Assembly (NCBI GenBank): GCA_000270325.1
Contig: BA000048.1
Location: forward strand, 515,709 to 579,708
Origin: Candidatus Caldarchaeum subterraneum
Lineage (GTDB): Archaea; Thermoproteota; Nitrososphaeria_A; Caldarchaeales; Caldarchaeaceae
Direction of reading: 5' to 3'
DNA: 64,000 bases
Part shown: in pieces, positions 2,492-62,182 of the stretch
Position numbering within the stretch: the first letter of the stretch is position 1
Layout: every line of letters starts with the position of its first letter
The notes under the pieces: generated by a model
The model's input: only the letters and a program-made list of their open reading frames with translations
Database searches by the model: none
Told to the model about the DNA's origin: nothing
Program-made: the position numbers and the translations under genes

Positions 2492-2533
2492 TGATGGGAC
2501 TTATTAGGCTGCTGATGATAATGGGTTGTCGGG

Positions 2534-2926: not shown

Positions 2927-3258
2927 TAGAGACTGCGCGTAGGAGGGCTGAGATGGTTAGGCGCTGGAGAGAATTTGTCGGGATGTTGGCTGAGGCTGTT
3001 AGAAAGGTTTTGGGGGATGCGGATGTGTATGTGTTTGGCAGCGTTGTCACGGGAGAGTGTGTGGCGTCGAGCGATGTGGATGTCTTGGTTGTCTCGGACA
3101 GGGTTCCCGAGTCGATGCTTGAACGCGGTGCCTTGAAGGTGGAGATTGAAGATGCCGCGGGGCTTCCCGTCTACCACCCCTTCGAGCTTCACTTCGTCAA
3201 GCCCGATGAGGCCATGCACTATTTCAAGAAAATTGGGCGAAACATTTTGAGGGTTTAG
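2923..3258 (+). CDS. Minimal nucleotidyltransferase (MNT) partner of HEPN
   Basis: VFGSVVTGECVASSDVDVLVV = GS...DxD nucleotidyltransferase motif. Confidence 0.7.
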   Translation: MIETARRRAEMVRRWREFVGMLAEAVRKVLGDADVYVFGSVVTGECVASSDVDVLVVSDRVPESMLERGALKVEIEDAAGLPVYHPFELHFVKPDEAMHYFKKIGRNILRV

Positions 3259-4313
3259 TACCACTGGTCTTCTTCGCCGACGACTGTTTGGCTTCTTCTC
3301 CTCATTATGACTGTTGCGGCGACCGCGAGGACGGCTATGCCGGTTACGGTGCCGTAGACTATGAGCTGGGCTGTTTCATGTGATAGGCTGGGTGTGGTGA
3401 TTTCTGTGGTTATGGGGGTTGTGGTGGTTGTCGTGGTCGTTGATGTGGTTGCTTCGTTGATGCTCAGGGTTATGGTGTAGGGGCCTCCTCCGCCCACTCC
3501 GCCTTGGTTAGACACCCTGATGTAGTAGGTTTTCTCAGCTGCGTCCTGTGTTTCCAGGCTCACCGCCGCTTCACCGCTGGTGTTGGTTCTGTTGCTTCTA
3601 AGCCCGTAGCCTGTCTGGTCGAGGATGACGAGTTCATAGATGTTTCCAGGCTGTGTCGTCAGTGTCGCGGTTAATTGTTTCCCTTTTCCAAGCACCGCTG
3701 TGAGGACATATGTGTCTACGTAGTCTAGTCCTTCGCTGGAGTTGGTTAAATAGCCTGAGATGATGGTTGTTTCCCCTGTTCTCAACGCTCCCAGGGGGGT
3801 TGCTTTTTCGAGTTTGTCGGCGGCTTCTCTTCCACCTGTGTCCACTAGCCGCTCGATTCCCAGCGTGATGACGTAGTCGGCTTTGGCGGGTCTCGCTTCT
3901 GAGAATATTCCTATTTTGAAGCAGAGCGTGGTTGAGGTGTTTTCGCCGAAGTTGCTGTGTGCCCAGCTGTAGACGTACTCCAGCGGGCCTCCTGCCTGAA
4001 TGGTCTGCACTCCGCCTATGCGGGAGAACTGGCTGGGCCTTATCTCCCACATCAGCAACGTGTTAAACCCTGTTGACGTGTTTGTGGTAACGGTTACTCT
4101 GAGGACTAGGCGTTCACCGGGTCTCAGGTTCTCGAACCTGTAAAAATCCTCTCTAAGCCGTCCGGCGAGCGTGGCTTCAATGGGTGGAAGCGTGTCCCCG
4201 GCCAGGTTTATCCTTTTGTCTGTTGTGATGCAGGGGTCGCTTGTCTGAGCAGATACAGCTGTGAAGGCGGCTAACAAAACAACGATTGTCAGAAGGGCTG
4301 TTGTTTCACGCAT
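3255..4313 (-). CDS. Cell-surface protein with signal peptide, Thr-rich stalk and C-terminal TM anchor
   Basis: N-terminal MRETTALLTIVVLLAAFTAVSAQ, linker TTSTTTTTTTTPITTEITTP, C-terminal AQLIVYGTVTGIAVLAVAATVIMRRR; many N-x-S/T sequons. Confidence 0.6.
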   Translation of the reverse strand: MRETTALLTIVVLLAAFTAVSAQTSDPCITTDKRINLAGDTLPPIEATLAGRLREDFYRFENLRPGERLVLRVTVTTNTSTGFNTLLMWEIRPSQFSRIGGVQTIQAGGPLEYVYSWAHSNFGENTSTTLCFKIGIFSEARPAKADYVITLGIERLVDTGGREAADKLEKATPLGALRTGETTIISGYLTNSSEGLDYVDTYVLTAVLGKGKQLTATLTTQPGNIYELVILDQTGYGLRSNRTNTSGEAAVSLETQDAAEKTYYIRVSNQGGVGGGGPYTITLSINEATTSTTTTTTTTPITTEITTPSLSHETAQLIVYGTVTGIAVLAVAATVIMRRRSQTVVGEEDQWY

Positions 4314-4447
4314 TCCAGCTGGTTTTTTCCCCAGTTCCTAAAAACGTTTTCCGTTTTGATTTGTGTCGAAAATATCTCCTCTATACTTTGAGCTAGGGTT
4401 TTGACGGATTATAAAAAATTTGAAGGGGGTTTAAAAAAGGTGGGTGT

Positions 4448-15408: not shown

Positions 15409-16500
15409 CTACTCAACGGTGGGTATGTCGAGAAGCGTAACCTCGGGTGAGCCGTCGTCGGAGATGCTTGTGAAAACCCTGTCGCTGTGTATGAGTGAGA
15501 GGTAGCTGAAGGTTCGTGAAACAGAGGCCGGTGTTGACCTGTATCCCTCCTCGAGGAGCCGGTATGCGGCGGCGAGGCAGAGAACGTTCAGCTTAACTTT
15601 CCCAAGCGCTCTATGCAGAACACGGTAGGCATCCAGCAGAGCCCGTGACTCGGCCTGCTGCCCCCCAATCCTGAGACCGTGAAACAGCGGAACAAATGCT
15701 GTGAAGAAGGTCTGGTCAACTCTCTCCAAAGGCTTCTCAAACACATCCGACAGCTCGCGGACATTCTTCAGAAACCTCTGCGAAACACTGTAACGAGCCC
15801 GCTTCACCCTCTCGAGAAAACCAACATCCACCAGCCACTCCAGCCGCGGCGGAACAAAGTGCCTATACTTGGCGTAGAGACGGCTCTTAATCCACTCAGC
15901 CTGCGAAGCATACTTCAGCCGCTCCTCCCGAAAACCCGAGGCCTGCTCAAGCTCCCTCTGAACCGATGCACGCCTCCTCTCCGGCATCCTCCTCAACATC
16001 CTCCTAAGAGCCTCGGGATACACCTCCTCCATCACCGCATACATGGCCTCGAGACGGCTGAACTCACGCATCCCAGCCAACCACTTGAGCATCCCAGAGA
16101 AAATGTAGTCTCTGTTCAGCAAGGCGTGGAGAAAGAGCGTCTTCTCAACATCTGTCAACGTCAAAACCTCTGAGAGATTGGCCATCCCCTCACCTGAGAC
16201 ATGCCGCCGCAGAGCCTCCGAAGAATTGAGACAGATATACGCCGCGCCATAGAGGCCTGGCCTTCCCGAAGCCCTGTCATAGAACCCCAGCTGCGCAGCC
16301 AGCTTGACGTAGTTGCGTGCGTTAACCTCGGTCCTGAGCATGCCAGGCATCTCCCCAACATCGTTAACCAAACTCCTGCACGTCTCCAGCAACACCGAGG
16401 CCAAATAGTCAGGTGAACGTGGCGAACCATCCTCGAGGATGCAGGCGATAAGCTTCAGGTAACCTAGTCGACAGACGTCGCCGTGAACCTCCGCTATCAC
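15409..16500 (-). CDS. Hypothetical protein, 363 aa, immediately downstream of and overlapping a methyltransferase gene; candidate restriction/effector partner
   Basis: Long ORF, mostly helical by composition; 4-nt overlap (16497-16500) with the upstream methyltransferase; no recognisable nuclease or ATPase motif. Confidence 0.55.
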   Translation of the reverse strand: MIAEVHGDVCRLGYLKLIACILEDGSPRSPDYLASVLLETCRSLVNDVGEMPGMLRTEVNARNYVKLAAQLGFYDRASGRPGLYGAAYICLNSSEALRRHVSGEGMANLSEVLTLTDVEKTLFLHALLNRDYIFSGMLKWLAGMREFSRLEAMYAVMEEVYPEALRRMLRRMPERRRASVQRELEQASGFREERLKYASQAEWIKSRLYAKYRHFVPPRLEWLVDVGFLERVKRARYSVSQRFLKNVRELSDVFEKPLERVDQTFFTAFVPLFHGLRIGGQQAESRALLDAYRVLHRALGKVKLNVLCLAAAYRLLEEGYRSTPASVSRTFSYLSLIHSDRVFTSISDDGSPEVTLLDIPTVE

Positions 16501-17693
16501 GCTATCCTCACCATCCTCCGTGGCTCACCCTTCGACAAAACAAGAACCTTCTCCCTGTCAACCCCCTGCCAAGACTTGAGATACATCAGATACTTGTGCC
16601 CACGTCTTATGCCGTCGCTTATGATGGCGCGGGCTGTGAAACCGCTTTTCTCAGCAGGCTCGACCAAAAGCTCCGCCAAATCCACCCGACGACCACCCGA
16701 CTTGACATCACCCACAACCAGCACACAGTATCCCCCAGGCTTCAGCATTCTGAAAAACTCATCCAAAACCCTCCCCATAAACTCGACATAACGTTTAACA
16801 GACTGGGTGGCGAAAAGCCGTTTACCGACAACACGGTAATCATGCCCGAGAAACCAGAGCCTCAGCCAGTTATCCCAAGCATAAGTCTGCAGGTTGAGGT
16901 AAGGCGGCGAAGTTACTATGAGGTCGACAGACTCATCCGCTATAGGCAGCGCTGATGCATCCATGTTGAAGGCGGCGCCCCTCGCCTCAGGCAACCCATC
17001 AGCCAAAACAGACTCAGCCTTCCTCAGCAAACAAGCCAAAACATTTCTAACAGGCTTCTTCAACCCATGCTCCGCAACATACCTTCTCATGTAGCGCGGA
17101 GCCATCGAGAAAGAGTGGCTGCATGGAACGCTCAAACTAATCTCGGAAGAACCATGCAGGATACCGAGCATACAGGCCTTCACAAAGTTCGTCACATCGT
17201 CCTCGGAGTCCAGAAGCAGTTCTCTTACGGCCAGTATCTGTTTGAGGGTTTGGGGGTGGTAGAAAGCTCGGACATCTTCGTCGACGTCGTAGACCGAGAC
17301 TGCGTCAGGCCTCATCACTCTCGAAGCCTTCTCAACCCAGCTCCTAACATCTCTGAACATAGCCGGCTTCACCTTCGCACGGGTAACCACATAGGCCTCT
17401 GGAGCAAGGTCGTTTCCCACGCCGACGCGGCCAGTCAAACACGCCTCAAGCGGGGCCGTCCCCTTGCCCGAAAACGGGTCAAGCACAAGGTCGCCGCGCT
17501 CCGAAAACCTCGTTACAACCCAGCGAGCCAACGCCGGCGGAAAAGAGCCCGTCCTCGACATGATGCGGTGAAGCGAGTGACCCCAGCTCCTGCCAAAACC
17601 TTTCCACGAGTCGGAAACCTCGCCGCTGGAAATGTAAGCTATTTCCGTCATCAAAAAACTCGGACCAACCTGCTCCACGCTATAATCATTCAC
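16497..17693 (-). CDS. Amino-methyltransferase (N6-adenine/N4-cytosine DPPY family), motif I before motif IV
   Basis: FPPALARWVVTRFSERGDLVLDPFSGKGTAPLEA (motif X/I) followed about 185 aa later by VDLIVTSPPY (motif IV) and RMLKPGGYCVLVVGD. Confidence 0.7.
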   Translation of the reverse strand: MNDYSVEQVGPSFLMTEIAYISSGEVSDSWKGFGRSWGHSLHRIMSRTGSFPPALARWVVTRFSERGDLVLDPFSGKGTAPLEACLTGRVGVGNDLAPEAYVVTRAKVKPAMFRDVRSWVEKASRVMRPDAVSVYDVDEDVRAFYHPQTLKQILAVRELLLDSEDDVTNFVKACMLGILHGSSEISLSVPCSHSFSMAPRYMRRYVAEHGLKKPVRNVLACLLRKAESVLADGLPEARGAAFNMDASALPIADESVDLIVTSPPYLNLQTYAWDNWLRLWFLGHDYRVVGKRLFATQSVKRYVEFMGRVLDEFFRMLKPGGYCVLVVGDVKSGGRRVDLAELLVEPAEKSGFTARAIISDGIRRGHKYLMYLKSWQGVDREKVLVLSKGEPRRMVRIA

Positions 17694-37036: not shown

Positions 37037-37237
37037 ATGGTGATTACCCACGAGGAGGCTAAGATTATAATGGATAAACTTGACAGCATCAGATTGGAGT
37101 TATTAAGGCTTAGGGCTTCCCTTCTCCCAGAAGAAGAGCTCAGCGAGGAGGAGATTAAAGAATTAGAAGAGGCAAAGAAAGAGGTAAGCCAGGGAATGTA
37201 TGTAAAGCTTGAAGAATTGCTGAAAGAATTTGATTAA
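37037..37237 (+). CDS. Putative antitoxin (RelB-like) of a RelBE-type pair
   Basis: 66-aa acidic helical protein directly preceding and abutting a RelE/ParE-like toxin gene. Confidence 0.5.
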   Translation: MVITHEEAKIIMDKLDSIRLELLRLRASLLPEEELSEEEIKELEEAKKEVSQGMYVKLEELLKEFD

Positions 37238-37500
37238 TGTTGTTTCAGGTCATAATATCCAATAGGGCTAGGAAATCGCTTAAAAGTCTAGTCAAGCAGC
37301 ATAGGCGGAGAGTCTTGGAGCTTCTCCTGATCCTAAGAGAAAATCCTGTCCCGACAGATTACTTCGATGTAAAGAAGCTAAAGGGATTAATATACACATA
37401 CAGAGTCAGAATAGGCGACATAAGAATCATTTATGAAGTCTCATGGAACGCAAAGACAATAAAAATCCTATTAATAGAATGGCGAGAACGAGCCTACTAA
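37237..37500 (+). CDS. RelE/ParE-family toxin
   Basis: 87 aa; RARKSLKSL..., YRVRIGDIRIIYEV..., IKILLIEWRERAY are the characteristic RelE/ParE pattern. Confidence 0.6.
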   Translation: MLFQVIISNRARKSLKSLVKQHRRRVLELLLILRENPVPTDYFDVKKLKGLIYTYRVRIGDIRIIYEVSWNAKTIKILLIEWRERAY

Positions 37501-37524: not shown

Positions 37525-37597
37525 TAGCCCCGGTGGGATTTGAACCCACGTCGCGGGCTCCAAAGGCCCGCATCCTTGGCCGCTAGACGACGGGGCT
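37525..37597 (-). tRNA. tRNA-Gln (anticodon UUG), no intron
   Basis: Acceptor AGCCCCG/CGGGGCT, anticodon stem CGGGC/GCCCG with loop CUUUGGA, T-arm GTGGG-TTCAAAT-CCCAC, discriminator A. Confidence 0.75.
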
Positions 37598-38145: not shown

Positions 38146-39624
38146 TTGCGCAGGTTGAGAATCGTTGTTGTAGGCGCCGGAGTGGGTGGTCTAGCGGCCG
38201 CCGCTCTGCTGGCGAGAGAAGGTCACGAGGTGACGGTTGCCGAGAAAAACAATAACGTCGGTGGAAGAGCAGGAGTGCTTAGCCGAGATGGGTTTACCTT
38301 CGACATGGGCCCCACATGGTATCTTATGCCGGAGATATTTGACCGCTTCTACAGCCACTTCGGCAAAAAAACCTCCGATTTTTACAATCTTCTGAAGCTT
38401 GACCCCGGGTACCGTGTCTTCTTTGACGACGGGGTCAAAGTGGATATATCGGCTGAGCTTGAGGAGAACATCCGTCTATTCGACGGGCTCGAGCCCAACG
38501 GAGGTGAGAAGCTGCGCAGATTTCTCGCAAAATGCGAAGAACTCTATAACAGCATATCAAAAACCCTATACCTCGACCTCGACTCTCCTTTCAGCTTCCT
38601 CAACCCGGAGATACTTTCCCAAGGAATCAAAATAAACATCTTCGAATCTGTCGAATCCTATGTAAAAAAATGGTTCCAATCAGACAAGGCCCGTAAACTG
38701 CTTCTCTACTCAATCGGGTTCATCGGTACACCGCCCTCCAAAGCACCCGCGTTCTACGCCATACTTAACTACGTCAAACTTGTCCAAGGCGTCTACATGC
38801 CTGAGCATGGTATCAGACAGGTTGTCGACACGTTGTACGGGTTGGCGAAGCAGGAGAATGTAGAGTTTCTCCTCGGACATGAGGTAAGTAAAATCGAGGT
38901 AACAAACTCGAAAGCCGAACGTGTCTACTTGAACGATTCTTCGATGAAGGTGGACGCCGTCGTCGTCAACGCCGACTATGCATTTTTCGAGACGAGGGTT
39001 CTCGAGCCACGTTACCGCACCTACGACGTCGACTACTGGAGCAAACGCATGTTCACACCATCAGCTCTCATCGCATACTTAGGATTAGACAAAAAAGTTG
39101 AAAATATTATTCCGCACAACGTTTTCCTCGAAAAAGACTGGGGTGAAAACTTTTACCAAATATTCGACCCACGTTACGCGAAATGGCCCGAATACGCCTC
39201 CTATTATGTGCATGTTCCCTCGAAGATAGATAAAACAGCAGCACCACCGGGGGGAGAAGCGGTCTTCATATTAATACCGGTCGCAAACGGCATAGAAGAC
39301 GATGACAAAAAACGCGAAACACTCTTCAACAACGTTCTCCGCGACCTCGAGCAGAAAACCGGGGAAAACATCCACGAAAACATCGTATTCAAACAATTGT
39401 TCAGCATAAGAGATTTTTCAGCACGCTACCACGCATACCGTGGCTCGGCGCTTGGTCTCGCCCACACACTTGGACAAACAGCTTTCTGGAGACCTGTGCA
39501 CAGAAGCAAAAAGGTCAAAAACCTCTACTACACCGGTCAGTATACTCATCCAGGAATAGGTGTGCCGATGGTGTTGATATCCGCGGAGATTATCCGTAAC
39601 AAGCTGCGAAAGGAGTTGATGTAG
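38146..39624 (+). CDS. crtI: Phytoene desaturase (CrtI family)
   Basis: N-terminal FAD fold IVVVGAGVGGLAAAALLAREGHEVTVAEKNNNVGGRA; about 490 aa; followed by phytoene synthase. Confidence 0.8.
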   Translation: MRRLRIVVVGAGVGGLAAAALLAREGHEVTVAEKNNNVGGRAGVLSRDGFTFDMGPTWYLMPEIFDRFYSHFGKKTSDFYNLLKLDPGYRVFFDDGVKVDISAELEENIRLFDGLEPNGGEKLRRFLAKCEELYNSISKTLYLDLDSPFSFLNPEILSQGIKINIFESVESYVKKWFQSDKARKLLLYSIGFIGTPPSKAPAFYAILNYVKLVQGVYMPEHGIRQVVDTLYGLAKQENVEFLLGHEVSKIEVTNSKAERVYLNDSSMKVDAVVVNADYAFFETRVLEPRYRTYDVDYWSKRMFTPSALIAYLGLDKKVENIIPHNVFLEKDWGENFYQIFDPRYAKWPEYASYYVHVPSKIDKTAAPPGGEAVFILIPVANGIEDDDKKRETLFNNVLRDLEQKTGENIHENIVFKQLFSIRDFSARYHAYRGSALGLAHTLGQTAFWRPVHRSKKVKNLYYTGQYTHPGIGVPMVLISAEIIRNKLRKELM

Positions 39625-40509
39625 ATGCTTATTCCAAAGCCTCCGCGTGTGCAGAAAACCTTGTTCAACCTATTCCACAAGGGAAGCACAACATACTTTA
39701 ACAGCACCCTCTTCTTCCCCGACAACGTCAAAAAAGACGTGTTCAAACTCTATGCATTCCTACGTAAAGCAGACAATTACGTAGACCTCATTCCACAGGA
39801 TGTGGAAGGATTCTACGCGTTCAAAGAAGAATATGAGCGAGCCGCATCCGGGTATCAATCGTCTGACATTGTCATCAACGAGTTTGTAGAACTCTCCAAC
39901 AGGAAGAAATTTGAGCAGGAATGGATAACCGCCTTCCTCGACGCGATGGAGTCGGACCTCTACCGCAAAACATACTATACACTCGACGAGCTCTGCGTCT
40001 ACATGTATGGCTCCGCCGAGGTCGTCGGCCTATTTATGGCCAAGATTCTTGATTTGCCTGAGGAGTCCTATATCTACGCAAGGTTTCTCGGTCGGGCGAT
40101 GCAGTACATCAACTTCATTAGAGACATTCGGGAGGATTATGAGCTGGGTCGCCAGTATCTACCCTACGAGGAGATGCGTATGCATGGAATTGAAGATTTT
40201 GAGCCGGCGCGTTTCTGCGGAAAACACGAAAGCTTCGCACGGTTCATTCGGTTGCAAATTGAGCGTTACCTCGAGTGGCAGCGGTTTGCTGAGCAGGGCT
40301 ACAAATACATACCGTACCGCTATTTGATACCTATTAAGACGGCGGCGGACATGTACAAGTGGACGGCTAAAATAATTCACAGACATCCGTCGATAGTTTT
40401 TATGCGTAAGGTGAAGCCGAGAAAGCGTAGGGTAGTTTACGGGGCCAACGTCAACTTTGTATTGGCTCTTCGACACAAAATTTTTACCGGGGGGCTGGTA
40501 TGGCCCTAG
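39625..40509 (+). CDS. crtB: Phytoene synthase (squalene/phytoene synthase family)
   Basis: KLYAFLRKADNYVD and YMYGSAEVVG regions typical of CrtB; abuts crtI and overlaps the next gene. Confidence 0.75.
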   Translation: MLIPKPPRVQKTLFNLFHKGSTTYFNSTLFFPDNVKKDVFKLYAFLRKADNYVDLIPQDVEGFYAFKEEYERAASGYQSSDIVINEFVELSNRKKFEQEWITAFLDAMESDLYRKTYYTLDELCVYMYGSAEVVGLFMAKILDLPEESYIYARFLGRAMQYINFIRDIREDYELGRQYLPYEEMRMHGIEDFEPARFCGKHESFARFIRLQIERYLEWQRFAEQGYKYIPYRYLIPIKTAADMYKWTAKIIHRHPSIVFMRKVKPRKRRVVYGANVNFVLALRHKIFTGGLVWP

Positions 40510-41366
40510 AAGCTGTCCAGAAAGTGCTTAAGGTCTCACGCTTTCGTTTCTGGATTTATGTGGCAGGTCCATACGTAGTCGGCTACACACTCGGCGCCAC
40601 AGGATTCAGCGACTTTCTCCGACCCGAGTACTACATCTATCTGATCTATTTCTTCATCCCCGCTAACATATTGGTCTACGGTGTTAATGACTATTTTGAT
40701 GTTGAGACGGATGCGTTGAATCCGAAGAAGAGTTCGAAGGAGCTGCGAATTGTTGGCAGAGATAGGGTTAGGCTGCGGAGGCTGCTTCTCGGTGTGCTTG
40801 GTATAAGCTTTGCATTAATGCTTTTCCAGGATAATGTGGCGCGTATCCTGTTCGGTGGATTTCTGTTTCTCTCGATTTTCTACAGCGCGCCTCCGTTGCG
40901 TTTCAAGAGTAAACCCTTCCTCGACTTCGCCTCGAACTATCTCTACATCATGCCGGGGGTCTTCGGCCACTACATCGCCTCAGGCAGCCTTCCCGATACA
41001 CTCATACTTCTGGCAGGGTTTCTACACATATCCGCTATGCACATCTTCTCAGCAGTTCCCGATATAGAGTTCGACCTAGCAGCAGGAATCAAAACAACCC
41101 CGGTTGTCATCGGCAGAAAAAACGCGCTAATACTGGTGACAGTTTTCTGGGCAGGCCTTGCATATTTAGCAATCATGCTAACGGGATTTCATCCTCTAAG
41201 CTTTTTGGCACTAATCTACCCCATGGTGCCGCTGTCTGTTCTGGTTTTCGGACGCGACATAAACCGTGTCTACTGGTCTCTTCCATACATCAACACATCT
41301 TTGGGCGGGCTTCTCTGGCTAGGACTCGTCAACCACAAGATCATCCCGTTTTTCCCGAATTTTTAG
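40500..41366 (+). CDS. UbiA-family prenyltransferase, possibly a carotenoid (lycopene) elongase
   Basis: NDYFDVETD (NDxxDxxxD) and DIEFD Asp-rich motifs, polytopic membrane protein, translationally coupled to crtB. Confidence 0.6.
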   Translation: MALEAVQKVLKVSRFRFWIYVAGPYVVGYTLGATGFSDFLRPEYYIYLIYFFIPANILVYGVNDYFDVETDALNPKKSSKELRIVGRDRVRLRRLLLGVLGISFALMLFQDNVARILFGGFLFLSIFYSAPPLRFKSKPFLDFASNYLYIMPGVFGHYIASGSLPDTLILLAGFLHISAMHIFSAVPDIEFDLAAGIKTTPVVIGRKNALILVTVFWAGLAYLAIMLTGFHPLSFLALIYPMVPLSVLVFGRDINRVYWSLPYINTSLGGLLWLGLVNHKIIPFFPNF

Positions 41367-41375
41367 AGAACCGTT

Positions 41376-41903
41376 ATGCAGATTTTTAGGCCATATGTTG
41401 ATTGGGCTAGGTCGGCCGCGGTTCTCGACGACCTGCGTCTAGGCAAACAGCGTGTAGAGTCCAAGCAGGTTCTGAACGTTTTTCTACGGAAGGCCGGTAT
41501 TCTCAGAGATGGGTTGCGCGGCTGGCTTAACCATCCGATTGTTCTACTTTACTACAACGACGGCAGGCCCTATGTCGACGACGTGGTGGGAATGTTCATC
41601 GCTTGTGTCAAAGAATGGGTGAGACGGGGAAAACAAAACAGCATAAACCTCGATGACATAAAGCATCTCCTCGACCAGCTAGAGAAAACACCCGGCACGC
41701 CTATTACCCATCTCCACGAAATAGAGTATCGGCGAATTCTTCTACTAAAAAACCCCAGCCATTACATCAAAACCTTCACAGAGGAGGAGGTTAGAGAGGT
41801 GTTGGAGACCGAGCCCGTGAAAATAAGCGGCATAAACTCTTGGTTATTTGATGACATGCGGCGTTACAGGCGGCTTTTGAAGAAAATTAGGGCGAGGCTA
41901 TAG
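41376..41903 (+). CDS. Hypothetical protein; weak resemblance to the pyrimidine-dimer DNA glycosylase (UV endonuclease) family
   Basis: N-terminus MQIFRPYVDWARSAAVLDDLRLGKQRVESKQVL...GWLNHPIV recalls the MxIWRxHP...WRE...NHP pattern; unverified. Confidence 0.3.
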   Translation: MQIFRPYVDWARSAAVLDDLRLGKQRVESKQVLNVFLRKAGILRDGLRGWLNHPIVLLYYNDGRPYVDDVVGMFIACVKEWVRRGKQNSINLDDIKHLLDQLEKTPGTPITHLHEIEYRRILLLKNPSHYIKTFTEEEVREVLETEPVKISGINSWLFDDMRRYRRLLKKIRARL

Positions 41904-42386
41904 CTTGTATCCTATTTTTCTGAGGAATTGTTTGCGGGCCTCGATGTGCTGCTCGGTTTCTATGCCTTTTGGCTTGTGGCCGTCGACTACTCCGAGGACG
42001 CCGCGGCCCTGCTCTGTCTCGGCGACTATTATCTGGAGGGGGTTAGCTGTGGCGGCGAGGATTGTGCATACCTCGGGCACGTCCTTGAGCCGCTGCATGA
42101 TGTTGATGGGGTAGAATCCCTTGATGAAGAGGATGAAGGTGTGGCCGCATCCTATCCTGAGCATGGTTTCGGCGGCGTGTTTCCGCAGCTCCGGGTCAGT
42201 TCCCTCATGGCGGACGAGGCATTCGCCGCTCGCCTCCATGAAAGCGAGGCCAAATTTAGCCCCCGGAACCGTGTTGACAACCGCCTCGTAAATGTCTTCG
42301 ACGGTTTTGATGAAGTGGGAGACGCCGAAGACCACGTTGCAGCCCTCAGGAATCTCGACACCAACAACCTCTATCTTAACGCTCAC
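41898..42386 (-). CDS. Adenosine-specific kinase family protein (COG1839-like)
   Basis: FGVSHFIKTVEDIYEAV, GECLVRHEG, PINIMQRLKDVPEV, GRGVLGVVDG match remembered family pattern. Confidence 0.5.
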   Translation of the reverse strand: MSVKIEVVGVEIPEGCNVVFGVSHFIKTVEDIYEAVVNTVPGAKFGLAFMEASGECLVRHEGTDPELRKHAAETMLRIGCGHTFILFIKGFYPINIMQRLKDVPEVCTILAATANPLQIIVAETEQGRGVLGVVDGHKPKGIETEQHIEARKQFLRKIGYKL

Positions 42387-42418: not shown

Positions 42419-43483
42419 TTAGAGGGTTCTTTCGACGAGGAATGTTGCGAGTTTTTTGAGCTTTGTCTTGGCTGGTGTGTCGGCGAGAAGAGGCTCAACC
42501 CTGCTCCATGCCATGTGAACGCTTCGCCGCATAACCTCCCGAGCATATTTGTCTGCGCCCGATTCTCTGATGAGGTTGATTGCTTCTTTGAGCTCTTGTT
42601 TGTCGGATGTGTGGCTGTGAAGTATCTGTCTGAGTCTTTTCGCTTTTTCGGATGAGAGATGTGTCAGGGCATACACCGTCATAAGGGTGTATTTGCCCTC
42701 GGTTATGTCGCCGCCTATCTCCTTCCCGTATCTCGCCTCGTCGCCGAAGATGTTGAGATAGTCGTCCTGTATCTGGAAAGCTGTTCCAACAGCTTCACCG
42801 AAGCGGCCAAGCTCCTCGAGAAGGTCTCCGCGTCCGGCGTATATGGCTGCAAGCTCGACGGCGAACCTTGACAAAGCACCTGTCTTGAAAGCAGCCATCT
42901 GGAGATAATGCTCCTCGGTGATGTCTGTTACGAGTCCTCGGTGCCATACGATGTCCATGGTTTGGCCGAGGCTGAGCCTTGTCATCGTCTCGACATATTT
43001 CTCGAGAAAGAGTGTGGCCATGTTTTTGGGCAGCTTTTTCGCGGCTAAGTATGCCGGGATGTAGTAGTAGGCGTTGCCTGCGTTGATGGCGATGTCTATG
43101 CCGTAGATGCGGTGGATGCATGGCTCTCCTCTTCTCATGAGGCTTCCGTCCTCTACGTCGTCGACTATCAAGGTGGCGTTGTGGATGATTTCGGGAACAG
43201 CGGCCAAGATGTAGATGCCAGGGTCTCCGCCGCCCAGAGCCTCATAAACTATCACCGTCAAAGCCGGCCGCCATCTCTTGCCTCCTCTCCTGAAAAGCTC
43301 CCAAAACGGTTTAGCCAGCCCCTCGGTAAATGACTCGGGGCTGTAGCGGTAAACAGGCTCACCAAACTCCTTCACGAGAAAACCTGTGTCAAACATTCTG
43401 GGTGTGAGCTTTTCAACAGCCTTCTCCACAGGCTCCACATATTCGGAGAGAATTGACAGAACCTCGTCCTCTAAGCTCATCAC
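42419..43483 (-). CDS. Geranylgeranyl diphosphate synthase (polyprenyl synthase family)
   Basis: First and second Asp-rich motifs LIVDDVEDGSLMRRG and FQIQDDYLNIFGD. Confidence 0.8.
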   Translation of the reverse strand: MMSLEDEVLSILSEYVEPVEKAVEKLTPRMFDTGFLVKEFGEPVYRYSPESFTEGLAKPFWELFRRGGKRWRPALTVIVYEALGGGDPGIYILAAVPEIIHNATLIVDDVEDGSLMRRGEPCIHRIYGIDIAINAGNAYYYIPAYLAAKKLPKNMATLFLEKYVETMTRLSLGQTMDIVWHRGLVTDITEEHYLQMAAFKTGALSRFAVELAAIYAGRGDLLEELGRFGEAVGTAFQIQDDYLNIFGDEARYGKEIGGDITEGKYTLMTVYALTHLSSEKAKRLRQILHSHTSDKQELKEAINLIRESGADKYAREVMRRSVHMAWSRVEPLLADTPAKTKLKKLATFLVERTL

Positions 43484-52701: not shown

Positions 52702-53330
52702 TGTGCGACAACACAATTCCATAGCATGTTCACACCTTCCCTTTTCCCTCTTTTGATGGGGAGAATGTCGAGGTTGGCTCTTAAGAGCGCGTCAACGGGA
52801 TGCGTTCCATTTGCTATGTTGCAGAGGAGGGCTACAGCCAGCTGGCTACCATACCTGTATTTAGGCACCTTGATGCTCAGAAGACTCAGCGTCTCATCTA
52901 GCTCACGCTGCCTGCTCTCAGGCCTTCTGGCGAAATTCACGTCTTCTTGCTGGAAAATCCACGCCAAAGCATAGAGAATGTACTCCAAATCATATCCGGG
53001 AAGACCTTCAACAGCATGTCTAAACCTCTCCACAACAGTTGCGATGTTCGCACCTTGCCAAACCTCCACGATAGCTTTTAGGACCTGCATGGCCTTCTCC
53101 TTGTCGGCGCATAGTTTACCGTAGAAATCTATGGCGAAGTGGGCGTGCTTAGGTGTGTATGACCGTATTCGTGGCTCAAGCTGGTAAACAGTTCTCACTT
53201 TGAAATCGCGTTTGGATTTACTGTCTTCGGTTTTGAGCAGTATCCATCCGTTGCTGAGCCTGACTACCTCGAGTATTCTCCGTCTGTTCCTGCCCCTGCC
53301 AAAATATTCGCCAACCGATAGCATGGTCAA
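52683..53330 (-). CDS. Hypothetical protein, 215 aa, overlapping the downstream end of a methyltransferase gene; its 3' end overlaps tRNA-Leu by 19 nt
   Basis: ORF; 4-nt overlap (53327-53330) with the methyltransferase; no recognisable catalytic motif. Confidence 0.5.
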   Translation of the reverse strand: MTMLSVGEYFGRGRNRRRILEVVRLSNGWILLKTEDSKSKRDFKVRTVYQLEPRIRSYTPKHAHFAIDFYGKLCADKEKAMQVLKAIVEVWQGANIATVVERFRHAVEGLPGYDLEYILYALAWIFQQEDVNFARRPESRQRELDETLSLLSIKVPKYRYGSQLAVALLCNIANGTHPVDALLRANLDILPIKRGKREGVNMLWNCVVAHAGGGI

Positions 53331-54304
53331 ATCTGCGTTAACCAGCCGCTCAACGACAATCTGCCCCGTTCTTCCTCGTTTTCCGGCTTTCTGAAGATGT
53401 ATAGATGTTCATGGGCTATTTTGTGGAAGCCATATTGTTCAAAATTTTTTCCACTCCATTTTTCACGCGTCGTCTTCATTTTGTGCTGCAGCTTGATTAT
53501 ATCCTCTGCTAGAACAAAGCCAGCTTGCAAGAATTTCAGCATCACGTAAGTGGAGATAGGCACGTAGTGTTTGTGTTTTCTCGTGTCGCCGATGAGTATT
53601 GCACAGTATCGTCCTGGTTTCAGAACACGGTAGGATTCACGGGCTATCTGCATCATTTTTCCCAAATAGTCCTCTAGCTTTCTGTATGCTGAAAGATCGC
53701 CTTCAGGTCTTTTCCGTGAATATGGGATGATGTTCCAATAGGGTGGATGTGTGGCGATCAAGTCTACACTCTCATCTTCTATGATGTTGAGTTTTGCCGC
53801 ATCGCCGTGATACACTTTTATCACCGGTTCCTGTTGTTCATCCAGTGGATGGAATTCAAAATTGAGCCGGTCCAGCGTGAGTATACATGCTTCATAATTG
53901 ATGTCGACGCCTATCGCGTTTCTCCCCAAGAGTGTCGCCTCGACCAGCGTGGTTCCCGAGCCAACCATCTGGTCAAGCACAAGCTCCCCCGGTTTAGTGT
54001 ATTTTAGAATCAGGTTTCTCGGAACATAGGGGCTCCAGTTTCCCCTGTAGTCGCCGGAGTGTGTGGCCCAGTCGCCGCGGTCCGGAAAACTCCACACAGT
54101 TGTGGCCTCGAGGTTGTATGATGCCGGTGGGCTGTATGAGTTGATTTTATGTGGTTTGCCTATCTCTATCCTGACATCTTCTACCTCGACATAGCCTTTC
54201 TCAGCCACATAGCGGCGATAATCCTCCCAAGTGACGGGCCTCATGCTAGTCAACACAAACTGTGAAGACCCTGTGTCCAACAGCGTCCCGAACATTCTGC
54301 TCAC
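53327..54304 (-). CDS. Amino-methyltransferase (DPPY family), paralog of 16497..17693
   Basis: NWSPYVPRNLILKYTKPGELVLDQMVGSGTTLVEA (motif X/I) followed about 75 aa later by VDLIATHPPY (motif IV) and RVLKPGRYCAILIGD. Confidence 0.7.
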   Translation of the reverse strand: MSRMFGTLLDTGSSQFVLTSMRPVTWEDYRRYVAEKGYVEVEDVRIEIGKPHKINSYSPPASYNLEATTVWSFPDRGDWATHSGDYRGNWSPYVPRNLILKYTKPGELVLDQMVGSGTTLVEATLLGRNAIGVDINYEACILTLDRLNFEFHPLDEQQEPVIKVYHGDAAKLNIIEDESVDLIATHPPYWNIIPYSRKRPEGDLSAYRKLEDYLGKMMQIARESYRVLKPGRYCAILIGDTRKHKHYVPISTYVMLKFLQAGFVLAEDIIKLQHKMKTTREKWSGKNFEQYGFHKIAHEHLYIFRKPENEEERGRLSLSGWLTQI

Positions 54305-54365: not shown

Positions 54366-54686
54366 TCATGGGTTGAAGGCATATTTCTCCTCAAGGATGC
54401 GGTATAGGTTTTCATCGCATATGAAGGTGAATGTTGGGACGCCTTCGATTTTTATTTTCCCGTCTATGATGAGCGTGGGTACGGAGCGTATTTGATACTT
54501 TTTCACAAGCTCTTCGACGGCGTAGAAGTTTTTGGAGAGGTCGTGTATGGTGAAGCTGCAGCCGGCGCATTTGCCAAGCTCAATCATGGCGCGTGTTTTT
54601 CGGCAGAGGGGGCAGTTTGAGATGAACAGCTCAAGCCGGTGAGGCACGTGGGGTAGCCTATGTGATGAGATTTTAGCGTTGTGCAC
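54366..54686 (-). CDS. Thioredoxin/glutaredoxin-like protein
   Basis: CPLC redox motif and cis-Pro context (SVPTLII); start uncertain. Confidence 0.45.
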   Translation of the reverse strand: MHNAKISSHRLPHVPHRLELFISNCPLCRKTRAMIELGKCAGCSFTIHDLSKNFYAVEELVKKYQIRSVPTLIIDGKIKIEGVPTFTFICDENLYRILEEKYAFNP

Positions 54687-55302
54687 GCTCTCCTAGTTTT
54701 GTGAGGATTTTTTGCCAGTCGAGTCTTGTTATTATGTAGATGAGTGTCATGGCTGCTGCGGCTGATGCTGCTGCGAGTAGGATTGTTTGGAGGGGGTTGA
54801 GCTGGCCTGCTGTGCATTCGATTATTGTGCATGCGAGTGTGCTCCAGTAGAGGGCTGTGTAGGCTGCGATGGTTGTGATGAGAAGTTTGCCTGCGAAGAC
54901 TGTGGGGAGGAAGAGTTTGCTGCTGTAGTTGGCTATGGCGAGGAGGATGTAGATGATGTCGTCGGGGAGGGGTGTGGCGGCTGCGGCGAGGACGGCGAAC
55001 CAGCCGTGACGTGCCACAAGCCGTTCGAGAGGCTGAATCCTTCTTCTTGTCTCGTCGCTTATCAGCACACGGCCGCCTTTGAAGAACCTGAAGAGAACAA
55101 GCTTCGCCGACGCCGCTCCAGCCGCGCTCGCCAACGCCGTGGGAAGAGGGTCAAGCCTTCCAGCCATCACGGCGATGATGATGGGAGGGATGTAGGGGCC
55201 TGAGACAAACGGGAGGAGGCTTCCGAGGAAACTGGCTGCCAACACACCGATGTAGCCATACGCCGTTAACCCCTCCCAGAAAGCCTGCGAGAAAATATCC
55301 AT
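54673..55302 (-). CDS. DedA/SNARE-associated (VTT-domain) membrane protein
   Basis: From internal Met MDIFSQAFWEGL... of ORF 54673..56049; hydrophobic, DedA-like; the upstream 250 codons of the ORF are low-complexity and antisense to the glycerate kinase gene. Confidence 0.6.
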   Translation of the reverse strand: MDIFSQAFWEGLTAYGYIGVLAASFLGSLLPFVSGPYIPPIIIAVMAGRLDPLPTALASAAGAASAKLVLFRFFKGGRVLISDETRRRIQPLERLVARHGWFAVLAAAATPLPDDIIYILLAIANYSSKLFLPTVFAGKLLITTIAAYTALYWSTLACTIIECTAGQLNPLQTILLAAASAAAAMTLIYIITRLDWQKILTKLGERAQR

Positions 55303-55360
55303 CACCGTTTTCTTTTTCGGGTTTGCTTTAACTCTTTTTACAGTCGTTAAGTTTGTAGGG

Positions 55361-56713
55361 ATGTGTGGTGGATGTTTTTTGTTGCGTGTGGTGGGGCTGC
55401 GTGGTGTGGGTGATGTTGCGGCAGGGTTGAGGAGCGGGTTGGCCGCTGTTGAGCCGGGTGCTTTGATTCGTCGAGTGGTGAAGCGGCGTGGTGGATGTCT
55501 GCAAATAGGGGGTAAGGTGGTTGAGCTGAGACGATTCCGCGACTTTGTCATAGTTGGCGGGGGGAAGGCTGCGGAGGGAATGGCCGCTGAGATGCTGCGG
55601 CTTCTCGACGGCTTAGACGTCAGAGGCGTGGTTGTTGTTCCACGTGGATACAGGCTGAGACGGCGTCTCAAACCTCTCGAGGTTCTATACGGAGGCCACC
55701 CGCTGCCAGACAGTATGAGCGAGGAGGCTGGGCGGCTGATACTCGAGATGGCTTCATCATGCAGCGGCGACTCGCTTGCTTTTGTTCTTGTCTCGGGTGG
55801 TTTTTCGGCGTTGGCCGCCGTGCCAGCTGAAGGTGTTTCGCTGCAGGACAAGGTTGAGGCAACCTCTGCGCTTCTGAGGGCCGGCGCCTCGATAGATGAG
55901 TTGAACACTGTGCGGAAGCATCTCTCAGCCTTCAAAGGTGGATGGCTTGCGAAAAGCCTCCGCTGCAGGGCCTTCTCCCTCATACTCTCCGATGTTGTCG
56001 GCGACCGTGTCGACGTGATTGGCTCGGGGCCCACTGCACCTGATCCCACAACCTTCCGGGACGCCCTCGATGTTTTGAGGAGGCGGGGTGTGGAGGTGTC
56101 TGAGAATGTTTGGCGACGGCTGCGTCGGGGTGCTGAGGGGATTTATCCTGAGACGCCTAAGCAGGGTGACCCGTGTTTTAGACGTGTTGTGAACGTGGTT
56201 GTCGGCGGCTGTGTCGACTCGGTGAAGGCCGCCGCTTTGGAGATGCGGCGAAGAGGTTACAGTGTTGTTGCGTTGACGAGCGGTGTTGTGGGGGAGGCGA
56301 GGACTGTGGCGAACCTTTTCGCCGCGGTGGCCCGTGATGTGGTGAGGCATGGTGTTCCCCATGCTCCGCCTTTTGCTCTGGTTGCAGGGGGTGAGACAAC
56401 CGTGACAGTGCGAGGACGTGGTAGAGGAGGCCGCAACCAGGAGCTGGTTTTGGCCACCCTGCATCTCTTACGTGATGTTCCGAGGTTTGTTTTCGCATCG
56501 ATTGGCACAGATGGGGTGGACGGCGTAACCGATGCCGCGGGAGCGGTCGCGACTCCTCAGACTCTCAGAAACGCGGCTAAGGAGGGGCTTGACCCTCTGC
56601 CGTTTCTCGAGGACAACGACTCCTACACGTTTTTCAGCAGGGTTGGTGGACTTGTTTTGACGGGGCCCACTGGCACAAACGTGGGCGATTTGATGATTCT
56701 CGCCATCAGGTAG
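55361..56713 (+). CDS. Glycerate kinase (MOFRL family)
   Basis: VIVGGGKAAEGMA, GGETTVTVRGRGRGGRNQE and SIGTDGVDG motifs; true start may be a downstream GTG/TTG. Confidence 0.7.
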   Translation: MCGGCFLLRVVGLRGVGDVAAGLRSGLAAVEPGALIRRVVKRRGGCLQIGGKVVELRRFRDFVIVGGGKAAEGMAAEMLRLLDGLDVRGVVVVPRGYRLRRRLKPLEVLYGGHPLPDSMSEEAGRLILEMASSCSGDSLAFVLVSGGFSALAAVPAEGVSLQDKVEATSALLRAGASIDELNTVRKHLSAFKGGWLAKSLRCRAFSLILSDVVGDRVDVIGSGPTAPDPTTFRDALDVLRRRGVEVSENVWRRLRRGAEGIYPETPKQGDPCFRRVVNVVVGGCVDSVKAAALEMRRRGYSVVALTSGVVGEARTVANLFAAVARDVVRHGVPHAPPFALVAGGETTVTVRGRGRGGRNQELVLATLHLLRDVPRFVFASIGTDGVDGVTDAAGAVATPQTLRNAAKEGLDPLPFLEDNDSYTFFSRVGGLVLTGPTGTNVGDLMILAIR

Positions 56714-58654: not shown

Positions 58655-61600
58655 TTATGCAGCTCTTGCAGGTGTTTTCGAGATTTGTAAAGTTTCTCTG
58701 TACAGTTCTTTTAGAACTTCTTGGTAGCTGACCTTACCAGACTCGATACTCTCCATGAGCTCCTCCAGCCTCCTCGTCAACGCCTCGGAGACAAACGAGC
58801 CAAAATTCGACACGAGATATCCATAGATTGTCTTACCCAGTTTTGTCGCCAGAACTCTTCCATTATCGTTGAAAATGTATCGTCTCTTGTAGAGGAGGTT
58901 GAGGACCTGTGCGTAGGTGCTCGGCCTGCCTATGCCTCGTTCCCTCATCAAGGCGATTATGTCACCTTCGCGGAAAAACGGCACCGCCTGCATGCTCTTG
59001 ATCTGGAGGTTCAGCACCCTGTGGACACCCGGTTCAAGCGCCTTCACCGTCTTGATGACTTGGTAGAGGTGGAGGAACCCTGGCTCAATAACATCTACAA
59101 TCCTCTCTATATCATAGGTTTTCCCGAGAATCATCAACTTGCATATCTGTCTCTGCACCAGCGCGTCCTTCATCTGACTAGCCATGAAACGTCTAAACAC
59201 AAGGTCGTAGAGCATAAACTCTCTATCACCTATTCGCATCGGCACTCTAATCAAACCCGACTGGAGATAAAGCTCGAGCTGCTTTCTCGAGAGCGGTTTC
59301 GTCGGCCTGATGCATTCATGTGCACCTGGTTCGCCATGATGCCTCGCCACAAAAAGCCCTGGAAAGTTCTCTTCAAGATAATTTCGAGCCACCGATAACC
59401 CTGTCGACGAGACATACGTCGACCCCGTTCTATGATAAGTTATCAGACCTGACTCGAAGAGGGTCTGGGCAGCATCCATCGCCTCCGCAGCACTCAGCCT
59501 GAGAAAAATCGATGCATCCCTTAGGAGAGAATCGGTCGTATAGGGCTTGACAGCAGGTACAACCGTCTCAACATACTTTACATCAGCCACCTCCACATTC
59601 AACACGCCCTCGGCATAGAGTCTCTTGACAACGTCAACATCCTCAATGCTGTCTAGCATGAGCTCGGAGCCGTCTTCAAACGTCATGCTTGCGACTAGTC
59701 TCTTCTTCTTAGCCTCTTCCATCCTTTGGATTATCCAGCCGAGGACAGGGGTTTGGACACGGCCTGCCGAGAGATGTTTTTCTCCGAAAAACTCCCAGAG
59801 ACGTCTGCTCAGCTCAAAGCCAACCCACCTATCCTCAATCCTTCTCACAACCTGTGCCTCGACAAGCGGCAGCGAAATACTGCGAGGAGACTTGAACGCA
59901 TCCCGCAAAGCCTTCCTCGTAATCTCATGAAGCTCAAGCCTCTCAATCCGCTTGTTAAACGGCCAAATACTCACATAGAGGTCGTAGCCAATCTTCTCAC
60001 CCTCCGTATCAGGGTCGGTTGCAATAAAGACACGGTCAAACTCGAGCGCCAGTTTACGGAGAGACTCGATTATGGATAGCTTGGTAAAGTATTTATCGGA
60101 GCGGCAGTTGGGACATACTTCGCTGTCCGTAAACTGCTCTCCACACTTAGAGCATCTCCTAATATCCACATACATCGGCACAAACTCTCCATCATGGACC
60201 CAGACACCATGGAACCCCTGGCTCGTCGTAATGTCCACCAAATGCCCCTGACAAGCGGTGAGACACGCGACATATCCCTCGCCAACCGACTCGTAAACAG
60301 TCAGTCCATCAACAACTCGTCTAGCAGGTTTTCCGAAGAAATAGGCCAGTGTACGGGCCTTCGTAGGCGACTCGACAACAATCAGCGACGAGCTCAAAAT
60401 ATCTAAGGACTCTAGTCTAGCCGACCCTGTTCTAATCTCTCGCAGAAACTGTCTATCTCTATCACATTGCTTAAACTCCTCCCTGGCTTGCTCCAAGGTG
60501 TATTCTTGGAACGTTTCTTCATAAATGGTTTCGAGGGCTCTCGAGATGCCTCTAAAAGCTTTCTCGTCATCTACTATGAGGATGGATATTCCACGGGTTA
60601 TGCCTCCCGCATACATCCTCGACGAGCGGCCCGACGCCTGTATATATCCATCGATGTCGGGAAGAATGATAGAGACACCGTTCTCGTCTACACGTAATCT
60701 CATGTCTAGGTTCTCTGCGACACGTCTCAGCTCCTCTTCACCGATGTATGTTTTTAGAAGTTGATGAGCTCTCGTGACAGCTGAGTAGACGTATCCCGCA
60801 AATCCTTCGGGCTGTCTAGAGGATTCAAGCCCCTCTCTGACAATCTCCAACACCTCCCTATCGGTGGGGACACATTTCTTCAACATGCCGGTGACCTGTA
60901 CTAGTTCGGACTCGTTCTTCTCCCTAAGTATCGAGTACAGGTTTCTGAGGAGGCTGAGCAGCATAGAGGGCCTGTGCTCTCGCCAAGACACGTTAAGCTC
61001 ACGCCTGGGAACACCGGCGAAAATTACGTATCTTATCCGCTCCGGTAAGTCTATGCCTCTGGCTAGAGGGCTTCTCCTGCTAGCGACACCGACCAAGACA
61101 TCATACTCGCCCAACTCAAACCGACCAAGCATCTTCGCATCCATCCTCTCGTAAGCATATGCGCTAATACCCTGGCTGTTCAGAAATTTTGCCAGCTCTT
61201 TAGCGGACTCGACGCCCGCTGTCTGCGGCACAAAAATCAGACATCCGCCGCCATGTGTCTTCACCAGCTCAGCAACCTGCTCCCACATGTTCTTGCTTGG
61301 ACGCAGATACATGTTGGAGATGTTTCTGACAAACTCTATTGAGCCTCCGGGCTCAAAGTTTAGAAGGCGTCTGAACAGTTGGATTCTCTTGGTTCTCCGG
61401 CCCTTCGCAGTGGCTCCGGCTACAAGCAATATAGAGTCGGGCTTCGCAATTTCTCTAGAAGCATGCTCCCCTGCCTCATTCTTCTCAGACCTACGCGAGA
61501 CTAGGCTTAATTGTCTCTCTATCTCTTCTTCATCAAACCCCATTAAGAGAAGAACCTTGTCGATGTTCCTCGCCGACTTGAGGAAAGAGTCTACATCATC

Positions 61601-62182
61601 AACAAAAATGAAGGAGAACTTTTTTCCTCTCAGAAGCTCGAAACGTGTGTTGAGGAAACGGTCTGTAGTAACCAGAATGTTAAACTCCTCATCCCTTATC
61701 TTCTGCAGCATCTCTTCCGCCTCGCTCTTTTTCATGCCGGAAAAGTATCCAGCGATTTTTGGTGCTTTTTCTCCATGTTTGGCCGCCATCGATAAGGCTC
61801 TTTCATGGATTTGTTGTGCAAGGAGGCTTGTGGGGACGATTATGTAGGATTTTTTCCCCTTGGACGCTTGGTAAATGGCCATCGCTATGAAGAAGGTTGT
61901 CTTCCCCGTTCCCGTCGGAGAAACTATTGAGAAGCTTCTTCCAAGGAATGTTCTTCTAATCCATGTCCGCTGCAGAGACCATGGAGGGGAGCCAACGACT
62001 CTGCTGAAAAAATCCGCAAACTCTCTATATCTTTCCTCAAGCTCCAAAGCCTTTGTATATTTTCCCGGCTTAAGCCTGCCATCCTGCGAAACACATCTGC
62101 TACAAACTCCGTTACCAATAAGCTCCTCATCGGTTATTGCCCCTCCACAGTTTGGGCAGAGAGATGCATAGATCGACTTCAA
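58655..62182 (-). CDS. rgy: Reverse gyrase
   Basis: 1175 aa: N-terminal Zn finger CPNCGG...CSRC, helicase Walker A PTGTGKTT, topoisomerase IA Toprim IVESPTKARTL, second Zn finger CSKCGE...CPNC. Confidence 0.9.
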   Translation of the reverse strand: MKSIYASLCPNCGGAITDEELIGNGVCSRCVSQDGRLKPGKYTKALELEERYREFADFFSRVVGSPPWSLQRTWIRRTFLGRSFSIVSPTGTGKTTFFIAMAIYQASKGKKSYIIVPTSLLAQQIHERALSMAAKHGEKAPKIAGYFSGMKKSEAEEMLQKIRDEEFNILVTTDRFLNTRFELLRGKKFSFIFVDDVDSFLKSARNIDKVLLLMGFDEEEIERQLSLVSRRSEKNEAGEHASREIAKPDSILLVAGATAKGRRTKRIQLFRRLLNFEPGGSIEFVRNISNMYLRPSKNMWEQVAELVKTHGGGCLIFVPQTAGVESAKELAKFLNSQGISAYAYERMDAKMLGRFELGEYDVLVGVASRRSPLARGIDLPERIRYVIFAGVPRRELNVSWREHRPSMLLSLLRNLYSILREKNESELVQVTGMLKKCVPTDREVLEIVREGLESSRQPEGFAGYVYSAVTRAHQLLKTYIGEEELRRVAENLDMRLRVDENGVSIILPDIDGYIQASGRSSRMYAGGITRGISILIVDDEKAFRGISRALETIYEETFQEYTLEQAREEFKQCDRDRQFLREIRTGSARLESLDILSSSLIVVESPTKARTLAYFFGKPARRVVDGLTVYESVGEGYVACLTACQGHLVDITTSQGFHGVWVHDGEFVPMYVDIRRCSKCGEQFTDSEVCPNCRSDKYFTKLSIIESLRKLALEFDRVFIATDPDTEGEKIGYDLYVSIWPFNKRIERLELHEITRKALRDAFKSPRSISLPLVEAQVVRRIEDRWVGFELSRRLWEFFGEKHLSAGRVQTPVLGWIIQRMEEAKKKRLVASMTFEDGSELMLDSIEDVDVVKRLYAEGVLNVEVADVKYVETVVPAVKPYTTDSLLRDASIFLRLSAAEAMDAAQTLFESGLITYHRTGSTYVSSTGLSVARNYLEENFPGLFVARHHGEPGAHECIRPTKPLSRKQLELYLQSGLIRVPMRIGDREFMLYDLVFRRFMASQMKDALVQRQICKLMILGKTYDIERIVDVIEPGFLHLYQVIKTVKALEPGVHRVLNLQIKSMQAVPFFREGDIIALMRERGIGRPSTYAQVLNLLYKRRYIFNDNGRVLATKLGKTIYGYLVSNFGSFVSEALTRRLEELMESIESGKVSYQEVLKELYRETLQISKTPARAA

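Follow-up and report, generated by a model that had tools for sequence, protein, structure and literature searches.

Within a 64,000-nt stretch of the Candidatus Caldarchaeum subterraneum genome (contig BA000048.1, positions 515,709 to 579,708; hereafter the window), an open reading frame (ORF) of 175 amino acids at 41376..41903 on the + strand encodes a genuine member of the superfamily of endonuclease V-fold proteins; the product has the catalytic glutamate, and its N-terminus is constrained. We infer that its product is most likely a DNA glycosylase/apurinic-apyrimidinic (AP) lyase. A UV photoproduct as the substrate, taken together with the reading of the gene as the last member of a pigment operon, is our best single guess, to which we give a probability of about 0.6. 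The ORF adds a member to a known family: public records already list its close archaeal relatives as "pyrimidine dimer DNA glycosylase/endonuclease V".

Family, fold and conserved residues

The ORF begins with ATG and ends with TAG at 41901-41903, and its translation is MQIFRPYVDWARSAAVLDDLRLGKQRVESKQVL...GWLNHPIV; the coordinates and the quoted sequence of a 175-residue ORF in a preliminary description of this DNA were reproduced exactly. The assigned start codon is correct, as MQIFRPY at its N-terminal end lines up with MQTFLPY, the N-terminus found across the family. Against a 91%-identical Ca. Caldarchaeum orthologue, the ratio of nonsynonymous to synonymous substitution rates (dN/dS) is 0.076, with 45 of the 61 differing codons being synonymous. 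The ORF is under purifying selection and well beyond a chance ORF, and its GC content (0.49) matches that of the neighboring carotenoid (crt) genes. A word-indexed search returned 89 homologues, the top two of which (91 and 73% identical) are both from Ca. Caldarchaeum, followed by a tier at 50-70% identity from Caldarchaeales/Nitrososphaeria, Thermoproteus, Pyrobaculum, and Vulcanisaeta and, after an identity gap, by bacterial and archaeal proteins of 130-160 amino acids that are 32-45% identical to the ORF product.

The ORF product matches the Pfam family PF03013 (Pyr_excise) with 45.8 bits (cut-off 23; E 7.9e-12), residues 1-91 aligning to profile positions 1-78 of 81; the partial coverage of the ORF reflects the shortness of the Pfam model. 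For comparison, T4 endonuclease V, the sequence of which was checked against PDB 2END, scores 53.3 bits, with residues 1-87 on profile positions 1-77. The match starts at residue 1; the preliminary description had noted an N-terminal resemblance to pyrimidine-dimer DNA glycosylases. In addition, the AlphaFold2 model, for which 33 aligned sequences were used, is all-helical and very confident (predicted local distance difference test score 95.2; predicted template modeling score 0.89), with the all-alpha fold of T4 endonuclease V. A significant profile match and a glycosylase-type fold were thus both found where the preliminary description had named the lack of a match and an unrelated fold as grounds for dropping its glycosylase-like reading, and that reading is supported as a matter of family and fold membership. 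A PHROGs search gave no meaningful match to the ORF, and a BFVD search returned mostly unnamed viral relatives.

The N-terminal region of T4 endonuclease V carries the catalytic Thr2 and Glu23. A local hmmsearch with the N-terminal 48 residues gave no direct alignment to T4 (E > 0.3), and the PF03013 model was used as a common ruler, with nested fragments of both proteins. Both begin at PF03013 position 1; ORF residues 1-28 (20.8 bits) and T4 residues 1-23 (18.3 bits) both span positions 1-26, and ORF residues 1-35 and T4 residues 1-30 both span positions 1-33. These shared end positions equate Glu28 of the ORF product with the catalytic Glu23 of T4 and place helix 1 in a +5 register, the N-terminal arm being five residues longer than in T4. 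Glu28, the putative catalytic acid (codon GAG, 41457..41459, + strand), is invariant in the family alignment of the ORF. It lies within residues 1-31 (41376..41468, + strand), the N-terminal arm and first part of helix 1, where the invariant or near-invariant columns M1, Q2, F4, P6, Y7, S13, L17, D18, R21, L22, G23, K24, Q25, R26, E28, and Q31 make up the signature of what we call the MQxF(L/R)PY clade.

This clade is large. A profile search run exhaustively over 1.84 billion representatives, with clusters at 50% identity, returned 4,575 clusters with E <= 0.001, of which 3,241 reached E <= 1e-10, and the archaeal long form to which the ORF belongs is one separate representative at this identity. 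Nearly all clade matches in that search begin at residue 1. The N-terminus is M/V-Q in 123 of the 149 top representatives and exactly MQTFLPY in 74 of them; residue 2 is Gln in 98% of a 172-sequence sample, which was itself filtered on residues 2-4, so that unbiased N-terminal figures come only from the 149 representatives. In the same sample, D18, R21, L22, K24, Q25, R26, E28, H53, W81, R84, K125, and Y130 are 97-100% conserved (Glu28 98%, W81 100%, R84 98%, K125 99%, Y130 99%), with E80 at 96% and G85 at 98%. Clade members score 70-90 bits on PF03013, above T4 itself, so that the Pfam family consists mostly of this clade and owes its name to T4.

The N-terminal alpha-amine is the nucleophile in the T4 mechanism (Thr2 after removal of the initiator methionine), and the fixed N-terminus of the clade fits such a mechanism. 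Methionine aminopeptidase should leave Met1 in place when residue 2 is Gln, and an N-terminally exposed Gln would cyclise. Therefore, Met1 is probably retained, and the role of nucleophile would fall to the Met1 amine or to a lysine.

Toward the C-terminus, profile-profile comparison with T4 recovers two further motifs. When hhalign was run against T4 or a 23-sequence T4-clade profile, one helix only was aligned, namely E80-W81-V-R-R84-G85 (41613..41630, + strand; end of helix 67-83) with T4 E77-C-L-K-R81-G82, a match found in all hhalign runs. With the 172-sequence profile and relaxed settings, ORF residues 47-138 aligned weakly to T4 residues 41-137 (E 0.018), with the residue pairs H53/H56, E80/E77, R84/R81, G85/G82, K125/K121, P127/P126, and Y130/Y129 (ORF/T4). 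It is in this weak alignment that K125-N-P127-S-H-Y130 (41748..41765, + strand) is set against T4 K121...P126-T-W-Y129. Residues 136-175 (41781..41900, + strand) form a helical, basic C-terminal extension, as judged from the alignment and the secondary structure of the model (helices 136-144, 155-159, and 161-174). This extension is specific to the archaeal long clade, and the bacterial forms of 130-160 amino acids lack it save for a conserved Trp156.

Carotenoid linkage and genomic context

The gene order on the + strand is crtI-crtB-UbiA-ORF. A CrtI-type phytoene desaturase (38146..39624; PF01593 Amino_oxidase, 129 bits) comes first in this co-directional block and is abutted by phytoene synthase (CrtB; 39625..40509; PF00494 SQS_PSY, 169 bits), which overlaps a UbiA-family prenyltransferase (40500..41366; PF01040, 93 bits). 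The ORF starts 9 nt past the stop of the prenyltransferase gene, directly after it as the preliminary description had placed it, and from this gap we infer that it is probably co-transcribed with the crt block. Converging on the ORF from the opposite strand are a PF04008 gene (41898..42386), a polyprenyl synthase of the geranylgeranyl diphosphate (GGPP) type (42419..43483; PF00348, 228.7 bits), a nitroreductase-family gene, and an FtsZ-like gene. Isoprenoid genes therefore bracket the ORF, with the crt block on one side and the GGPP-type synthase on the other, and the earlier wording "inside the carotenoid locus" is a fair description. The UbiA prenyltransferase is the NF009516/PRK12875 equivalog (335.9 bits; cut-off 205), and the crt block shows neither a lycopene cyclase nor a CruF-type hydratase; its pigment may be acyclic or prenyl-elongated.

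The crtI-crtB-UbiA-ORF order is kept in the 91%-identical (loci L001-L004) and 73%-identical (L005, L006) Ca. Caldarchaeum relatives. In a tblastn search of 98 loci with CrtI, CrtB, UbiA, and the GGPP synthase of the window, the only loci with crt genes at a distance of up to 8 kb were those of Ca. Caldarchaeum and L079, a contig of an Acidimicrobiia metagenome-assembled genome (CAVWJT010000028.1, 2347-7292), and co-occurrence with crt genes is not conserved across the family in these loci. In L079, ispH/LytB (5784-6809) is followed after 9 nt by the homologue (6819-7292), which scores 86.6 bits on PF03013. The pair is divergent from crtE (4694-5719), crtI (3225-4838), and crtB (2347-3228), past which lie carotenoid-modifying genes, with glycosyltransferase, CrtO-like, and FA_hydroxylase ORFs. 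Two independent tight linkages are suggestive, though little more than chance would give, and the proposed pigment-plus-repair operon itself is confined to one lineage. In a sigF mutant of Mycobacterium smegmatis, which loses its carotenoid pigmentation as well, the mycobacterial clade member MSMEG_6728 is down-regulated (PMC4694148), a result of limited weight because the sigF regulon is large.

Elsewhere in the window, a reverse gyrase with helicase, Toprim, topoisomerase, and zf_Rg domains (58655..62182) indicates a (hyper)thermophilic host. A ParE-type toxin (37237-37500; PF05016, 27.9 bits) is preceded by a putative antitoxin of 66 amino acids (37037-37237; no Pfam match), in a low-GC patch (0.386) beside tRNA-Gln (37525-37597, - strand). 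The 91 and 73% relatives have no such pair listed at this position, which may point to a recent insertion. An ORF of 2,596 amino acids (4448-12238, - strand), with CarboxypepD_reg near the C-terminus as its sole Pfam match, may encode a surface protein. Two N6/N4 DNA methyltransferase genes (PF01555) are found at 16497-17693 and 53327-54304, both on the - strand. Finally, two opposite-strand ORFs, 54673-56049 (- strand, VTT domain) and 55361-56713 (+ strand, DUF4147/MOFRL), overlap by ~690 nt; the VTT domain lies in the non-overlapping part, and the - strand gene therefore probably starts at an internal codon.

Proposed function and its alternatives

We propose that the small, all-helical enzyme of the PF03013 superfamily would bind double-stranded DNA where it carries a UV photoproduct or a lesion of similar kind, and would then cleave the N-glycosyl bond, with the invariant Glu28 as the catalytic acid. 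By analogy with T4, the nucleophile would be the alpha-amino group of the conserved N-terminus, here probably Met1, and this amine would probably leave a nick by beta-elimination. As the last gene of the crtI-crtB-UbiA-ORF block, the ORF may allow a pigment "sunscreen" and the repair of lesions to be made together.

A number of observations weigh against this proposal. No endonuclease V match was obtained by phmmer or by a family-profile hmmsearch of PDB sequences, and hhalign of the ORF family against the T4 clade gave a probability of only 0.3-2.6%. In the N-terminal register, Thr2, Arg3, Arg22, and Arg26 of T4 correspond to Gln2, Ile3, Val27, and Gln31 of the ORF product. Our search of the literature on MSMEG_6728, PF03013/Pyr_excise, archaeal or Pyrobaculum homologues, and the mechanism of bacterial pyrimidine dimer glycosylases found no biochemical characterisation. 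Homologues lack the crt linkage in a 66%-identical Calditenuaceae genome, in another Caldarchaeales genome, and in T. tenax, P. aerophilum, and Vulcanisaeta, with no crt genes near loci L007-L011 and L015-L017. Overall, 79 of the 80 species-level loci are without it, and two independent linkages among ~90 lineages are only slightly above a rough chance estimate of ~0.5. Even within the block, the ORF is closely preceded by two T5 runs, at 41349-41353 and 41360-41364 (a further one lies downstream, at 41915-41919); oligo-T tracts can terminate archaeal transcription, and some transcripts could thus end before the ORF. The clade is also common in organisms of dark habitats, such as groundwater Candidate Phyla Radiation (CPR) and DPANN lineages, Smithella, Desulfarculus, and Desulfobacterales, which weakens a strictly UV-specific role; its hosts also include many pigmented, surface-dwelling Actinomycetota and Chloroflexota.

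Many of these points are what would be expected if the protein kept the fold and the general chemistry and acted on another lesion, such as abasic sites, ring-opened purines, or some other bulky or oxidised base. This is the main rival reading and, in our view, a less likely one. The "pyrimidine dimer" in its name would then have been carried over from T4, and its place beside the crt genes would be due to chance or to a shared regulation under general stress. The make-up of PF03013, the T4 substrate-binding arginines and nucleophile that are not kept, the rarity of the crt linkage, and the frequency of the clade in dark-habitat, small-genome lineages all favor such a shift. So does the gene neighborhood of the clade, in which the only functionally informative recurrent neighbor is a repair gene for an oxidised-base glycosylase of the Fpg/Nei type (H2TH), directly adjoining the Pyr_excise homologue on the same strand in four loci (one of them L036:61-1127). 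Set against this are the two independent 9-nt linkages to carotenoid or isoprenoid genes and the features held in common with T4, namely the catalytic Glu, the helix-2 motif, and the C-terminal K...P-x-x-Y motif. To our knowledge, moreover, all characterised enzymes with the endonuclease V fold act on pyrimidine dimers, with AP sites and formamidopyrimidine-adenine (FapyAde) as secondary substrates.

A role without catalysis is improbable. A DNA-binding protein that retained the endonuclease V fold and lost activity, serving to sense lesions or to regulate the pigment operon, would accord with the basic C-terminal helix specific to the archaeal clade and with the fusion of one bacterial relative to an HTH_3 domain, but the Glu28 equivalent and ~15 other polar residues show 97-100% conservation over thousands of divergent clusters and the N-terminus is constant, as is typical of an active site, and the gene mostly stands alone, without a consistent target operon. 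Clustering of flanking ORFs at 88 loci found no neighbor family in more than six of them, on which grounds a conserved operon partner was rejected. Less probable still, to the point that we reject it on phyletic and fold grounds, is an accessory enzyme of carotenoid biosynthesis or modification with a superficial likeness to endonuclease V. The position of the ORF at the end of the crtI-crtB-UbiA block and the second case adjoining ispH and crtEIB (L079) would suit such an enzyme, but close homologues occur in Calditenuaceae, Thermoproteus, Pyrobaculum, and Vulcanisaeta and at the many loci without crt genes, the fold is that of a DNA glycosylase, and the identifiable fusion partners bind DNA.

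These fusion partners are found in the longer clade members, which carry the Pyr_excise module at the N-terminus, most of the C-terminal extensions being without a Pfam match. All identifiable partners are DNA-related: RecQ zinc-binding domains (two proteins), the HTH_3 domain, and a phage single-stranded DNA-binding domain (one protein). The long N-terminal Pyr_excise fusions (P0237, P0279, P0280, and P0294, of 520-580 amino acids, and about 15 proteins of 250-380 amino acids) may be new multidomain repair proteins.

A bolder reading, which we offer only tentatively and consider doubtful, is that the MQxF(L/R)PY clade, the archaeal long form among it, has a mechanism of its own within the endonuclease V fold, using a retained Met1 alpha-amine or an invariant lysine (K24 or K125) as the nucleophile and maybe acting on another lesion. 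In Caldarchaeales and Thermoproteales such an enzyme could account for part of the dark repair of UV photoproducts that is left unexplained in hyperthermophilic archaea by knockouts of nucleotide excision repair homologues and of UvdE (PMC4471258), and in Ca. Caldarchaeum it would be wired into the pigment operon.

Relation to known UV-repair systems

Repair of UV dimers by base excision has been described for T4, chlorella viruses, and a few bacteria; we came across no archaeal case in the literature. In hyperthermophilic archaea, UV photoproducts are removed in the dark, and the deletion of homologues of nucleotide excision repair genes or of UvdE has no effect (PMC4471258). The ORF family, conserved in Caldarchaeales and Thermoproteales, is a lineage-restricted and cheaply testable candidate for part of this dark-repair gap. 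If the proposed activity is correct, the enzyme would be a naturally thermostable relative of one already used in photoprotection products. More broadly, thousands of "pyrimidine dimer glycosylase" annotations rest on a fold and one glutamate and not on an assay.

T4 endonuclease V (DenV; PDB 2END, 1ENJ, 1VAS) is the founding pyrimidine-dimer DNA glycosylase/AP lyase and is ~13% identical to the ORF product, which, as far as primary structure goes, is not very T4-like. Enzymes of this type are defined by cleavage of the glycosyl bond of the 5' pyrimidine in a cis-syn cyclobutane pyrimidine dimer and by a nick made through a Schiff base and beta-elimination. The T4-like DenV clade, comprising T4, T-even phages, and enterobacterial prophages, has the invariants M-T-R-I-N-L and Arg3/Arg22/Arg26, all of which the ORF product lacks; the invariant basic residues of its own clade are instead R21, K24, and R26. 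Compared with T4, the ORF product also has extra loops and the 40-residue basic C-terminal extension. The C-terminal aromatic/basic region of T4 (K121...P126-T-W-Y129) binds DNA, and K125...P127...Y130 is its putative counterpart in the ORF product.

Among NCBIfam families the best match is NF038085, the MSMEG_6728 family of actinobacterial MQTFLPY proteins (130-160 amino acids), at 59.6 bits and under the cut-off of 100 bits, with ORF residues 1-100 on profile positions 1-89 of 149. By its sequence, the ORF product belongs to a sister clade of NF038085 and is not a member. The two share the signature M-Q-x-F-x-P-Y ... S-A-x-x-L-D ... R-L-G-K-Q-R-V-E ... G-W-x-x-H-P and, further on, E-W-x-x-R-G ... 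L-x-x-K ... Y ... W. The archaeal clade differs in having R5 and not L5, an insertion of 8-12 residues around positions 40-48 and 60-63, and the C-terminal extension. Its orthologues from Ca. Caldarchaeum, T. tenax, P. aerophilum, and Vulcanisaeta are 50-91% identical over their full length (175-190 amino acids), and those of the Thermoproteales carry an extra Cys-containing ...C...FPRR tail.

No photolyase or UvdE was seen among the large window ORFs that were scanned, a scan that covered part of the ORFs of the window. These two enzymes have the role proposed here, the removal of UV photoproducts, with folds and chemistry unrelated to those of the ORF product. In several bacteria, photolyase and carotenoid genes are regulated together in light-controlled regulons, and the crtI-crtB-UbiA-ORF block of Ca. 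Caldarchaeum may pair pigment synthesis with repair, here by a putative glycosylase of the endonuclease V fold.
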